Below, one piece after another: positions 6,381-20,547 of a DNA stretch of 62,029 nucleotides; the stretch's first letter is position 1; every line of letters begins with the position of its first letter. Source of the DNA: Balneolales bacterium (GTDB lineage: Bacteria; Bacteroidota; Rhodothermia; Balneolales; HLUCCA01); NCBI GenBank assembly GCA_024711145.1, contig JANJTJ010000121.1, positions 1-62,029 on the forward strand, given 5' to 3'. A program made the translations under genes and the position numbers. The notes below the pieces were generated by a model. It did no database searches and was not told the origin of the DNA. It saw nothing but the letters and a program-made list of their open reading frames with translations.

Positions 6381-7658
6381 ATGATGCGTAAAGAACTCTT
6401 GCTGATCGGGGGACTGGGTATTTTCTGTCTGGGATTGATATTCTGGTTCATCTTTTCAGAATCGTCGCCCTTCGCCCCGAAATCGGAACCCGTCTCACCG
6501 GCCACTTTGGCCAATACCACCGGCATCGTGGAAATCCGCCGGGCCGGCCAACCGCATTGGACCAACGCCGAACCCGGCGATTCGCTCCTGCTCGGCGACC
6601 AATTGCGCACGTCCAACCACGCACAGGCGTTGCTGCGGTTCAGGGCTTCGGCCTGGATATTGGTGGATTCCTCGACCACCCTGACACTGTCCCAGTCCAC
6701 CGGACGCGACCCGGCCCATATCGATCTGGAGACCGGCGCGGTCACCTACAACCGCCTGGTGAGCAAAAGGAACGTGCCCGTCGGTGTCAAAACCGCGGAA
6801 GGCACCTTCTTGAGTGCCCGCCTGGACGAGGTGGACCTGCCGGCCCAGGTCCGCGAAGAATCGTATGTGTCCCGTTACCGGGGCACCACGCGGGCCACGG
6901 CCGACATGGGCGCCTTCCGATGGGTGGTGGGCACCACCACCGTCGACGTACCCGAAACCAACATGCTTACCGCATCCTCCGGGGCGCCGGTGGTCAGGCC
7001 GCTCAAACCCGCCGTGGCCATCCGATACCCGGCCCAGGAAGCCGAATATCCGGCCGGCTACATGTCGCGCGGCTTCAATGTGCTTTGGGGGGCCGATGCG
7101 GCCGCCACTGGCTACCGTGTGGAATGGATGCGTATGGATTCCATACCCCAGTTGGCCAGCGCCCGCGAAGTGGACGAAACCGGTTTCCGCGTGCGGCTGC
7201 TTCCCGAGGGCGTGTACCGGTTCCGGGTACGCACCCGCCTGGCCGACGGACACAGCCTTTGGTCGGAGCCCCTGTCGGTACGGATCGGCGGCACCCGGTA
7301 CCTGTCGGATGTGCCCAAGCCCGATGCCGACTCCGAACCCATCCGGTTCACACACAAACCCTTCGAGGAGAGTTGGATCGTGGGTGGGTACGTGCGCCAG
7401 GACCTGGTGGCCGACCATGAGGTCGTCGTGTATCTGCAGGCGGACGTATGGTACCGGCAACCGGCGGTGGAACCGTTCCGCATACCGCTTCAGCCCGACG
7501 GCTATTTCGAAACCGTGACGCCCAAGGGCCGCGGGTTGTATGTATCCCTGGTGCGCCAGGGTGCCGGCACCTGGCCCGAACTGGTATCCCATCTGCGGTT
7601 GTTGCCCATCCCCGACGGGGAATCGGTGCGGTTCAACGTCGAGCGGCGGATCCACTGA
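6381..7658 (+). CDS. Single-pass membrane protein with FecR-like domain, fibronectin type III-like domain and a C-terminal beta-rich domain
   Basis: N-terminal TM (LLLIGGLGIFCLGLIFWFIF); GD-x-LRT...IDLETGAV FecR pattern; W...GYRVEW...YRFRVR...WSEP FN3 pattern. Confidence 0.7.
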   Translation: MMRKELLLIGGLGIFCLGLIFWFIFSESSPFAPKSEPVSPATLANTTGIVEIRRAGQPHWTNAEPGDSLLLGDQLRTSNHAQALLRFRASAWILVDSSTTLTLSQSTGRDPAHIDLETGAVTYNRLVSKRNVPVGVKTAEGTFLSARLDEVDLPAQVREESYVSRYRGTTRATADMGAFRWVVGTTTVDVPETNMLTASSGAPVVRPLKPAVAIRYPAQEAEYPAGYMSRGFNVLWGADAAATGYRVEWMRMDSIPQLASAREVDETGFRVRLLPEGVYRFRVRTRLADGHSLWSEPLSVRIGGTRYLSDVPKPDADSEPIRFTHKPFEESWIVGGYVRQDLVADHEVVVYLQADVWYRQPAVEPFRIPLQPDGYFETVTPKGRGLYVSLVRQGAGTWPELVSHLRLLPIPDGESVRFNVERRIH

Positions 7659-18145: not shown

Positions 18146-20547
18146 GTGGTCAACCGTTTGGTGATCATATCCAGCGGATAGAATTCGCCACGCCGCAAGA
18201 GGGCTTGCAACTGACGGTTTTCGGCGGAATCGGGCATGGTGGTCAAATGGTCGGCCAAGATGTCGAATTCCTGTGTCAACAGGAGGTTCCGGACGAGGCC
18301 GGCGTCGGATTCGGGCAGCGACGCGATGAACCCGGCGATGGCGTCGTGGTCGGGTGGTGCGGCTTGGGCGGCCGGTACGGCATCGCCGGCATACCGGTAC
18401 CGGATGCCGGCCAGCCGGCCGATGATGTCCAACAGATACCGTTCCTGGAACGGTTTGCGCACATATTCATCGAACCCGAGCGCGATGAGCTCCTGGTTCT
18501 TGCCGTCGAATCCGCTGGCGGTCAAGGCGATGATGACCACCGGATCGACCGCTTCGGCCCGTATCGCCTTCATGCAGGAAACCCCGTCCAGAACCGGCAT
18601 GACGATATCCATGAGCACGACGGCCGGTTGCAGTTCGCGCCACCGTTCGATGCCTTCGCGCCCGTCGGCGGCTTCGTGTACGTCGAACCCGATGCGCTCG
18701 AGCAAGATGCGCGCCACTTCCCGATTGGGTGCGATATCGTCCACGATGAGGACCACGGGCCGGGCATCGCCTTCGAGTGCGACCGGTTCGGGCAGATGGC
18801 TGTCGGCCCAGGTGGGCTCCTGGTCGGACGGCTGCATGGTGACGGTGGCCGTGAAGACGGAACCTTCACCCACGATGGACTGCACCGAGAGTTCTCCATC
18901 CATCAGATGGGCCAATTTCAACGAGATGGCCAGGCCGAGCCCGGTACCTTCGGAATACCGTCCCTTCACCTGGGCGAACGGTTGGAACAAGTGGTCCAGC
19001 GCATCGGGCGGAATGCCGGGACCCGTGTCGGCCACGTCGAACCGGAGCCGGATGCCCGTTTCGGTTTCGTCGAACGCGAATCGGATGGTGACGGTACCGG
19101 CTTGGGTGAATTTGACCGCGTTGCCCACCAGGTTGATGAGCAATTGCCGCAGTTTCTGGGCGTCGCCATACAAGGCACCGGGCATGGGATCCTGGAATTC
19201 GCTCACCAGACGGATGCCCTTCTCGCGGCACCGCAGGTTGAACATGCTCTGCAGGTCGTGCAGGAGCTCCTGCATGGCGAAATGCGTCGGATTCAGCTCG
19301 ATCTTGCCCGCTTCGATCTTCGACAGGTCCAGGATGTCGTTGATCATGTTGAGCAGGTGGTTGCCGCTGCGGAACATGGTGTCGATGTATCCCTGTTCCT
19401 CCGGCGCCAGGTTGGTGCTTTTCTTCAGGATCTGGGCATAACCCAGCACCGCATTCAACGGGGTGCGCAATTCGTGGCTCACCCGGGCCAGGAAGCCGCT
19501 TTTCGCGTCGCTGGCTTCGATGGCCTTCTGTCGGGCCTCTACCAACTCGTTGATGCGGTAGGCCGCCAGGATCACCCGGTACCCGCCCGAACCGTTGGCC
19601 AACGGATGCATGTGCCAGGAGATGACCGATACGTGGCCGTCACCGAAATCCACATGGTCTTCCGCATTGGAGACGTCCGACCCGCCGCGAACCTGTTCCA
19701 TGCCCGCCTTCAGATGCGTGCACAGGATCGGATGGCATTCGGGAAACGAGGCCCCTATGCGCAGGTCGGCCGCATGCTCGTTGAACTCCTGCTTCCACCG
19801 CCGGCTGAAACTGATGATGCTGCCGTCCGCTTCGAACAGGATGAGCGGTATGGGCGCGTTCCGGATGAATTCCTCCACCTGTGCCCGCTCCGTACGCAAC
19901 TGCGATTCCGCTTTCCGCCGATGGGATATGTCGCGCAGGAGCACGATGCTGATGATGAGCAGCAAGGTGCCGGCCACCATGCTCTGCCAGATCATGATCG
20001 TGGCCGATCGGCGGTAGGTGCGGTCGTACGAACGCAAGCGGTTGTTCAGGGCGGTTGATTCCAGCACCTGGATGCGGGATGCGTAGTTCCGGACCACACC
20101 CATCTCCTCCCGACCCACACCCGATTGGATCAGGGCCAGCGCCGCCTCGCGGCCCTGGCTGTCTCTCAGGTCCAACGACTGCTGCATGAAGTCGATCTTG
20201 TGCCCCACATGCGCTTCGAGCGAGTCGGCCAATTCCCGGATGTGGGTCTCCATGGCCACCTGGCTCAACAGGGCCAGGTCCTTTTCCACCTGGACGGCTC
20301 CCGACCGGTACCCCTCGAGGAATTCGGGATTGCCCGTCACCGCATAGCCCCTCTGGTCCGATTCCATGCGGGTCAGGGCGGATTGTAACGATTTGAGGGC
20401 ATCCACCACGCCTTGTGTGGTGGTCACATCCCGGAAGGCGGTTTCCAAACGGGACGAGCCCGTGTAATTGGCCCACGCACTGAACCCCAATACCAGCAGA
20501 GCGGCAAAGAGGCCCAGCTTGACCCGAACGTCAGTGATTGGTTTCAT
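18142..20547 (-). CDS. Membrane hybrid histidine kinase: CHASE3, PAS, HisKA, HATPase, REC, helical tail
   Basis: TM-CHASE3 (MESDQRGYAVTGNPEFLEGY)-TM; SHELRTPLN, NLVGNAVKF, DTGPGI, GTGLG; IVDD...MDIVMP...KPF; start MKPITD at 20547. Confidence 0.9.
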   Translation of the reverse strand: MKPITDVRVKLGLFAALLVLGFSAWANYTGSSRLETAFRDVTTTQGVVDALKSLQSALTRMESDQRGYAVTGNPEFLEGYRSGAVQVEKDLALLSQVAMETHIRELADSLEAHVGHKIDFMQQSLDLRDSQGREAALALIQSGVGREEMGVVRNYASRIQVLESTALNNRLRSYDRTYRRSATIMIWQSMVAGTLLLIISIVLLRDISHRRKAESQLRTERAQVEEFIRNAPIPLILFEADGSIISFSRRWKQEFNEHAADLRIGASFPECHPILCTHLKAGMEQVRGGSDVSNAEDHVDFGDGHVSVISWHMHPLANGSGGYRVILAAYRINELVEARQKAIEASDAKSGFLARVSHELRTPLNAVLGYAQILKKSTNLAPEEQGYIDTMFRSGNHLLNMINDILDLSKIEAGKIELNPTHFAMQELLHDLQSMFNLRCREKGIRLVSEFQDPMPGALYGDAQKLRQLLINLVGNAVKFTQAGTVTIRFAFDETETGIRLRFDVADTGPGIPPDALDHLFQPFAQVKGRYSEGTGLGLAISLKLAHLMDGELSVQSIVGEGSVFTATVTMQPSDQEPTWADSHLPEPVALEGDARPVVLIVDDIAPNREVARILLERIGFDVHEAADGREGIERWRELQPAVVLMDIVMPVLDGVSCMKAIRAEAVDPVVIIALTASGFDGKNQELIALGFDEYVRKPFQERYLLDIIGRLAGIRYRYAGDAVPAAQAAPPDHDAIAGFIASLPESDAGLVRNLLLTQEFDILADHLTTMPDSAENRQLQALLRRGEFYPLDMITKRLTT

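Follow-up and report, generated by a model that had tools for sequence, protein, structure and literature searches.

Synthase-dependent secretion (of cellulose, poly-N-acetylglucosamine (PNAG), alginate and Pel) underlies much of biofilm biology, and in the cases studied it is gated by cyclic di-GMP (c-di-GMP). In the Xanthomonas xagABCD and the sfz/sfb stalk clusters, a processive family 2 glycosyltransferase (GT2) is combined with a partner in the outer membrane or the periplasm, and these clusters are associated with biofilm or matrix polysaccharide (PMC3609779, PMC8250860). Sfz2, which is homologous to XagB, begins with a domain of GspE_N/MshEN type, and its partner resembles BcsB (PMC8250860, PMC4643136). 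The DNA analysed here, called the window, was the whole 62,029-nucleotide stretch of contig JANJTJ010000121.1 (assembly GCA_024711145.1) from a Balneolales bacterium. Its positions 6381-20592 contained a cluster of nine genes in two converging sets; all positions below are window positions unless a locus is named.

The cluster probably encodes a synthase-dependent exopolysaccharide machine that is made up of a receiver, a membrane HEAT protein, a GT2 and an exporter with tetratricopeptide repeats (TPR) and a beta-barrel, and that is switched by the receiver. The proposal of the first-pass annotation that the locus makes and exports a polymer was supported by the GT2 motifs, the predicted fold of the exporter and the co-occurrence of the two. 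Loci of this type were widespread, forming an operon set in which the synthase was always accompanied by an unstudied HEAT-repeat membrane protein and usually by a receiver domain. Full-text searches that paired HEAT repeats or PBS lyase with a GT2, with PgaC or with a response regulator, as well as one for YaiO, found no published description of the module.

The synthase, the HEAT protein and the receiver

The GT2 gene (9050-11119, minus strand) encoded 689 residues with Pfam matches to Glycos_transf_2 (1e-21), Glyco_tranf_2_3 and Chitin_synth_2. The full D,D,D,QxxRW set ascribed to it was confirmed as INDGS (D101), DADS (D175, D177), GED (D282) and QRNRW (324-328), and these motifs were invariant across six aligned orthologues, down to 42% identity. 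The first general feature of the synthase class was therefore present, namely an inner-membrane processive GT2 with D, DxD, (T/G)ED and Q(R/Q)xRW and with flanking membrane helices. The best curated match was PgaC_IcaA (TIGR03937), with an E-value of 9e-39 and 133.5 bits against a cut-off of 422; the cellulose synthase and NodC models scored far lower (CelA model, 32 bits). Judged by these scores, the GT2 is PgaC/IcaA-like but no equivalog. Its named homologues came from Balneolaceae, Rhodohalobacter and Balneola, and a phmmer search against PDB sequences matched only generic N-terminal GT2 segments and was uninformative.

The usual end of this GT2 subfamily was WGAMTRKG, after which the window GT2 added a linker, one membrane helix and about 170 residues. 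GT2 residues 543-598 aligned at 36% identity with the SPOR stretch of P0003, a 78%-identical homologue in which SPOR was above the Pfam threshold; therefore, the tail of the synthase includes a domain of SPOR type, which presumably lies in the periplasm and binds peptidoglycan.

Directly upstream lay the gene of a 362-residue HEAT protein (11112-12200, minus strand; Pfam HEAT_2 1.2e-18). Its description as a membrane-anchored HEAT protein held: one N-terminal helix was followed by a basic stretch, and the protein is predicted to be an N-terminal helix with a cytoplasmic alpha-solenoid. HEAT orthologues could be aligned over their full length, and a word-indexed homologue search with the N-terminal part recovered only the query. 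In one relative, the HEAT-family protein (L023:8173-9618, minus strand) was longer, at 481 residues, and matched LysM weakly at its N-terminus; seen alongside the SPOR tail of the window GT2, this suggests that peptidoglycan-binding add-ons recur in the module.

The HEAT alignment had no stretch conserved enough for a locus scan, and the GT2 alignment was used. Scanning one genome per species revealed at least 596 related stretches, of which the best 80 (45-62% identity) were examined; because they were chosen by GT2 similarity, these 80 loci describe one GT2 subfamily. Their hosts belonged to Balneolales, Rhodothermales, Ignavibacteria, Neomarinimicrobiota, Gemmatimonadota, Myxococcota, Bdellovibrio, Nitrospiraceae, Elusimicrobia, Lentisphaeria, Cloacimonadota, Acidobacteriota (Geothrix), Actinomycetota, Clostridia, and Alpha-, Beta- and Gammaproteobacteria, including the cultured Stutzerimonas stutzeri. 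A HEAT-family gene of about 350-390 residues was located directly upstream of GT2 in all 73 loci with enough upstream sequence, covering about a dozen phyla (counted after one round of profile building), and in 12 of 12 loci from relatives.

Of 72 loci, 62 had a receiver-domain gene upstream in the same orientation, and in 48 this gene directly adjoined HEAT. Among the 62 receiver proteins, 21 carried GGDEF and 4 carried Hpt; the rest had no further Pfam domain at threshold and were mostly bare receivers of about 120-150 residues. With GGDEF in only 21 of 62, the receiver domain is therefore the constant element and GGDEF is optional. The window had the same arrangement, with HEAT directly upstream of GT2 and the receiver upstream of HEAT, all on one strand. 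Proteobacterial loci were headed by the receiver in the order REC-YaiO-HEAT-GT2. In Gemmatimonadota and Myxococcota loci (L034-L103), a REC-GGDEF protein of 400-800 residues typically stood before HEAT-GT2 and was preceded by a hybrid kinase; by its domain content, the synthase core there is wired to a diguanylate cyclase.

In the window's own lineage, c-di-GMP control was excluded on grounds that go beyond the domain content of the cluster. No c-di-GMP domain (PilZ, MshEN or degenerate GGDEF) was detected in the cluster by Pfam, as the first-pass annotation had said. Further, GGDEF, EAL and PilZ were absent from the genome itself (90% complete), and GGDEF was absent from 41 genomes of the order (this one and 40 relatives), while the same search was positive in 8 of 14 control genomes. 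Since genome and order have no c-di-GMP machinery, control here cannot run through c-di-GMP, and any switching in this order without diguanylate cyclases is independent of it. This independence is a property of the window's lineage and not of the whole module family, because GGDEF accompanies 21 of the 62 receivers elsewhere.

The stand-alone receiver (12204-12584, minus strand, 126 residues; Pfam Response_reg 2.5e-24) had the acidic pair, D57, T87 and K109, as read from its sequence; the phospho-acceptor pocket was thus intact, and there was no output domain. Four kinase-like genes had been reported beside it, and all were present on the minus strand. They encode a kinase of REC-HisKA-HATPase type (12581-13693), a hybrid histidine kinase that combines four PAS domains with a receiver (13684-16989), a GAF-HisKA protein (16946-18145) and a second hybrid histidine kinase, with CHASE3 (18142-20592; Pfam CHASE3 4e-23, HisKA, HATPase, REC). 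The GAF protein, however, proved to be a pseudokinase rather than a kinase. Its Pfam matches were GAF and HisKA only, with no HATPase match, and its H-box read SNELRTP, with Asn in place of His; the counterpart in other Balneolales families was an intact GAF kinase directly before the receiver.

The REC-kinase next to the receiver was kept in the loci of relatives (L013-L017 and L120) and is likely the cognate kinase of the stand-alone receiver. The PAS and CHASE3 hybrid kinases would be input modules, the latter with a predicted periplasmic sensor. At E-values up to 10, neither hybrid kinase showed Hpt in its 92-residue tail. For this reason, the phosphorelay proposed at first is more aptly described as a network of kinases with the REC-kinase and receiver pair at its end. 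Given the GAF pseudokinase and the lack of Hpt, the simplest scheme has the receiver phosphorylated by the REC-kinase, whose activity the three remaining proteins would modulate.

The synthase and exporter could be read correctly and the receiver still be a phosphate sink or connector, or have another target, with HEAT-GT2 activity set mainly by transcription or substrate supply. Stand-alone receivers are often sinks in multi-kinase networks, the four kinase-type genes could serve another output, 10 of the 72 loci had no receiver upstream, and no fusion protein was found that ties REC to HEAT. However, the direct adjacency of receiver and HEAT genes in 48 loci extended over many phyla, the receiver heads the proteobacterial operons, and Pfam detected no DNA-binding or enzymatic output domain anywhere in the cluster, so that a receiver that does not act by contact is considered unlikely.

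The exporter and its co-occurrence with the synthase

The exporter gene (7658-9067, plus strand) encoded 469 residues. Its start had been placed at 7448; the gene begins instead with the ATG at 7658, which gives the signal peptide MRTLLALLLLAALGTPRVAAQ. The signal peptide was followed by TPR repeats (TPR_19 2e-15) and a beta-rich second half, for which there was no Pfam or NCBIfam match (neither PF19413 nor TIGR04390). Orthologues terminated in ...RF. A first AlphaFold2 (AF2) model from five sequences was unusable, with a predicted local distance difference test score (pLDDT) of 30-50 in the barrel. An alignment of 33 sequences of both barrel types, the window type and YaiO, gave a mean pLDDT of 90.8 and a predicted TM-score of 0.83; addition of the YaiO sequences raised the pLDDT of the barrel model from 58 to 91.

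The AF2 model consisted of ten TPR helices (about five TPR pairs) and 16 strands. The five best PDB matches in Foldseek were BcsC (9b8a, E 2.7e-18; 9b8h; 6tzk), PelB (9h80_M, E 1.6e-11) and the PgaA barrel (4y25, E 1.2e-9, TM-score on target (TMt) 0.74), after which generic porins and autotransporters followed. An unrelated family, which would have spoken against the proposed role in export, was therefore not what the barrel modelled as; AF2 and Foldseek pointed to a TPR scaffold in the periplasm that continues into a beta-barrel in the outer membrane, the second general feature of the synthase class.

In comparison with YaiO, BLASTP gave nothing and a shallow hhalign comparison gave a probability of 0.2%. 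Against the YaiO profile, hhalign gave a probability of 61% (E 8e-5; reversed control 0.5%), which is suggestive only. The window barrel may thus be a very divergent YaiO relative or a YaiO replacement, with a predicted BcsC/PgaA fold. A word-indexed homologue search with the barrel protein was swamped by TPR words.

Among the related loci, Pfam placed YaiO (PF19413) in 17 of 38 TPR proteins, and a local YaiO profile found the YaiO barrel in 30 of the 80 best loci. The window-type barrel was found at full length in six further loci, from Gemmatimonadota and Syntrophorhabdus. Altogether, 36 of the 80 loci, from other phyla, had barrels beside HEAT-GT2. There were none in monoderm lineages, as expected, because the barrel is an outer-membrane part. 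The Syntrophorhabdus locus L104 (L104:7956-14162) contained in a row HEAT, GT2, an 807-residue TPR protein, a polysaccharide deacetylase of carbohydrate esterase family 4 (CE4) and a window-type barrel.

Co-occurrence was analysed in the 41 Balneolales genomes, the window-type barrel being searched within the window's family only. GT2 was present in 15 genomes. The window-type barrel occurred in 7 of the 7 GT2-bearing genomes of the window's family, and the YaiO barrel in 8 of the 8 GT2-bearing genomes of other families, in 7 of them on the same contig as GT2. No YaiO barrel was found in GT2-less Balneolales genomes, and no window-type barrel in GT2-less genomes of the window's family, except a truncated remnant in G003. 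The 15 genomes with GT2-HEAT-REC were thus the same 15 that had an intact TPR/barrel gene, so that the two gene sets do co-occur in relatives. Nominally, so complete a 15/26 separation has a probability of about 2e-11; its real weight is less, as the genes are adjacent and the genomes related.

In G003 (L120, G003:C7:559000-578900), the HD, FecR-like and kinase genes were kept. A single deletion at about 9350-10760 of that locus had cost the barrel gene its final 66 codons and the receiver gene its 3' half, and GT2 and HEAT were lost entirely; the locus is a natural knock-out of the core.

In L025, L027 (10864-13338, minus strand), L028, L040, L046 and L075, the TPR-YaiO gene was paired with a gene for a protein of about 825 residues, in which a domain of the sulfatase family (alkaline-phosphatase superfamily) is combined with TPRs at the C-terminus. 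The hosts were other Balneolaceae, Salinibacter and a Bacteroidota metagenome-assembled genome, and the gene was absent from the window cluster. By analogy with BcsG, this protein may be a polymer-modifying transferase.

The glycan of GT2-HEAT might also stay in the envelope, as a periplasmic or peptidoglycan-associated septal polymer or as a glycolipid, and the barrel might serve another role. This would suit the SPOR domain fused to the window synthase, the weak LysM match on one relative's HEAT protein, the 20-30 diderm loci without a barrel within 8 kb and the monoderm lineages, whose HEAT-GT2 without a barrel implies that the core pair works without an outer-membrane pore. It is nevertheless quite improbable, since the barrel has a polysaccharide-exporter fold, its presence matches that of GT2 in the 41 genomes, and the multi-helix architecture and QxxRW motif of the GT2 are features of a chain-translocating synthase.

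Under the preferred reading, export through the barrel, the gene before it probably encodes an accessory. The FecR-like single-pass membrane protein (6381-7658, plus strand, 425 residues) had been named FecR-FN3 and described, with the barrel, as converging with the other genes. Both genes were there and convergent; the domain name was weak, since the matches to FecR (E 1.3e-3; 19.5 bits, cut-off 24) and fn3 (E 7e-4) had E-values of about 1e-3 and fell short of the Pfam cut-offs, and two FecR-like orthologues had no Pfam match at all. No sigma factor or TonB-receptor domain was found in the genes scanned between 5136 and 28922, and the protein did not have the make-up of a FecR-type anti-sigma factor or transducer (PF04773 with an extracytoplasmic function sigma factor and a TonB-dependent receptor). 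Its stop codon overlapped the start of the barrel gene (TGATG), and the two genes are therefore translationally coupled. FecR-like orthologues were found only in the window's bacterial family (L013-L016, L120, L121), always just before the barrel gene with an overlap of a few bases. The protein is probably an accessory of the window-type barrel; that it forms a link to the inner membrane is a guess.

The FecR-like and barrel genes might instead have a function apart from the synthase, perhaps in one operon with the HD gene, and lie beside GT2 by inherited order only. This is very improbable: the two gene sets are indeed on opposite strands, the FecR-like and HD genes are conserved neighbours only within the window's family and neither Pfam nor NCBIfam matched the barrel half, but window-type barrels stood beside HEAT-GT2 in Gemmatimonadota and Syntrophorhabdus too, the YaiO barrel takes the same role in sister families, the fold matches BcsC, PelB and PgaA, and the single deletion in G003 hit the barrel 3' end, GT2, HEAT and half of REC together.

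The locus also points to an exporter swap at the same synthase core, in which the YaiO-type barrel was replaced by a divergent barrel with a BcsC/PgaA-like fold.

Proposed mechanism, product and gene layout

In the proposed mechanism, the GT2 would polymerise a UDP-sugar, perhaps an N-acetylhexosamine (HexNAc), and thread the chain through its own membrane channel, with the HEAT protein as an obligate co-subunit on the cytoplasmic face. The stand-alone receiver would be phosphorylated by the adjacent REC-kinase, on which the GAF pseudokinase and both hybrid kinases (CHASE3 and PAS) would act as modulators. The phosphorylated receiver would then bind the HEAT/GT2 complex and switch polymerisation. 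The chain would cross the periplasm along the TPR domain and leave via the 16-strand barrel; the FecR-like protein, coupled to the barrel, might help to connect or assemble the exporter, and the SPOR tail might tie the synthase to peptidoglycan.

HexNAc as the product is a guess, based on the sub-threshold PgaC/IcaA match and on the one CE4-bearing related locus; the nearest characterised synthases make PNAG.

Several points weigh against this scheme. Gene order is the sole basis on which we infer signal transfer from the receiver to HEAT; no REC-HEAT or HEAT-GT2 fusion was found, the long matches to the HEAT profile being plain HEAT arrays, and the hybrid kinase tails had no Hpt domain. The module family may have been c-di-GMP-responsive at first, with the window receiver a remnant, a possibility raised by the 21 of 62 receivers elsewhere that carry GGDEF. 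Because the barrel gene adjoins GT2, joint loss by one deletion inflates the phyletic correlation. As to the product, the TIGR03937 score was far below its cut-off, CE4 deacetylase was found in only 1 of 92 related loci (L104), and several Balneolaceae loci had the membrane sulfatase-family/TPR protein instead of CE4. Short metatranscriptome contigs (from two sediment sets of one study and two others) matched exactly or nearly exactly and were scattered over the FecR-like, barrel, GT2, HEAT, receiver and kinase genes; this is weak support for transcription of the locus, at low depth and with DNA carry-over possible.

A bolder proposal, that the HEAT protein represents a new class of co-subunit, on which a phosphorylated CheY-like receiver docks to gate the GT2, and that the receiver is ancestral and GGDEF an add-on, is made tentatively and may well fail. 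If true, two-component phosphorylation would here, for the first time, be seen to switch a synthase-dependent polysaccharide machine directly, and Balneolales, being without c-di-GMP, would be the natural system for its proof. The Balneolales copy makes direct gating of a glycan synthase by a receiver testable, with cultured relatives and by reconstitution.

All nine genes of the first-pass annotation were found with the claimed domains in Pfam and NCBIfam scans of the ORF list, the FecR and FN3 labels being sub-threshold. Seven genes were on the minus strand and two on the plus strand. The end of the cluster, given before as 20547, was corrected to 20592. The spacing of 0-8 nt described for the genes did not hold as such; counted from the first start codons, the junctions ranged from a 44-nt overlap to a 5-nt gap, which is still operon-like. 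The HEAT and GT2 genes overlapped by 8 nt, and the receiver and HEAT genes were separated by 3 nt. The 3' ends of the convergent GT2 and barrel genes overlapped by 18 nt (9050-9067), so that there is no room for terminators between them. The same abutment was observed in relatives, ranging from a 2-nt gap to a 20-nt overlap.

Beyond the CHASE3 kinase, the right flank contained housekeeping genes (dihydrofolate reductase, aminotransferase, RNase III, fab), and the left flank contained an HD-domain gene. Domain scans of the cluster genes revealed no deacetylase, lyase or hydrolase; the reported lack of a deacetylase or lyase gene was thus borne out and applied to the flanks as well.

Comparison with described polysaccharide systems

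Among the closest described systems were PgaABCD and IcaADBC, which gave the best curated match of the window GT2 and whose PgaA, like the window exporter, joins TPR repeats to a 16-strand barrel. The logic of an inner-membrane synthase with a small membrane partner is also shared. However, the window proteins were far below the equivalog cut-offs (GT2, 133 against 422 bits; PgaA, 27 against 367 bits), the cluster had no PgaB/IcaB-type deacetylase, PgaD or IcaD, and the partner of its synthase was the 362-residue HEAT protein. In addition, the window had a receiver and kinases, a SPOR tail on the synthase, and a host without c-di-GMP. Membership in the Pga/Ica PNAG systems was rejected on the score of 133.5 bits and on the absence of both a CE4 de-N-acetylase and a small partner from cluster and flanks; elsewhere in the genome, there was one weak CE4 match.

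BcsC and PelB of the Bcs and Pel systems were the best structural matches of the window exporter, and the window GT2 has D, DxD, xED and QxxRW as BcsA does. In contrast to these systems, the window had no PilZ, BcsB, PelC or PelD, and its TPR region was much shorter, at about 150 residues.

The c-di-GMP-gated MshEN-GT2 systems (NfrB/NfrA, Xag and sfz/sfb) have a processive GT2 in common with the window, but no HEAT partner was reported for them, whereas the window has one. Identity with xagABCD was rejected, as neither the window GT2 nor its neighbours had GspE_N/MshEN or a BcsB-like partner; this separation is drawn from published descriptions.

TPR-YaiO (PF19413) is the equivalent exporter beside HEAT-GT2 in the sister families and in many phyla. 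The barrel part of the window protein had about 290 residues, compared with about 235 in the YaiO type. The literature on YaiO deals mainly with its use as a PCR marker. In Escherichia coli K-12 (NC_000913.3, 380069-384616), yaiO is located with yaiP (GT2), yaiS (deacetylase) and yaiX (an acyltransferase gene split by IS2), and this cryptic yaiS-yaiP-yaiX-yaiO group may be a decayed polysaccharide locus around a YaiO barrel. YaiP was 25% identical to the window GT2, and the E. coli locus, unlike the window, had no annotated HEAT-repeat or receiver gene.

The receiver/YaiO/HEAT/GT2 loci shared the core of the window and differed in the parts around it. The window barrel had no YaiO match, was encoded convergently and was coupled to the FecR-like gene, and the order to which it belongs has no GGDEF; its synthase carries the SPOR tail, and four kinase-type genes are attached to the receiver, HEAT and GT2 genes.

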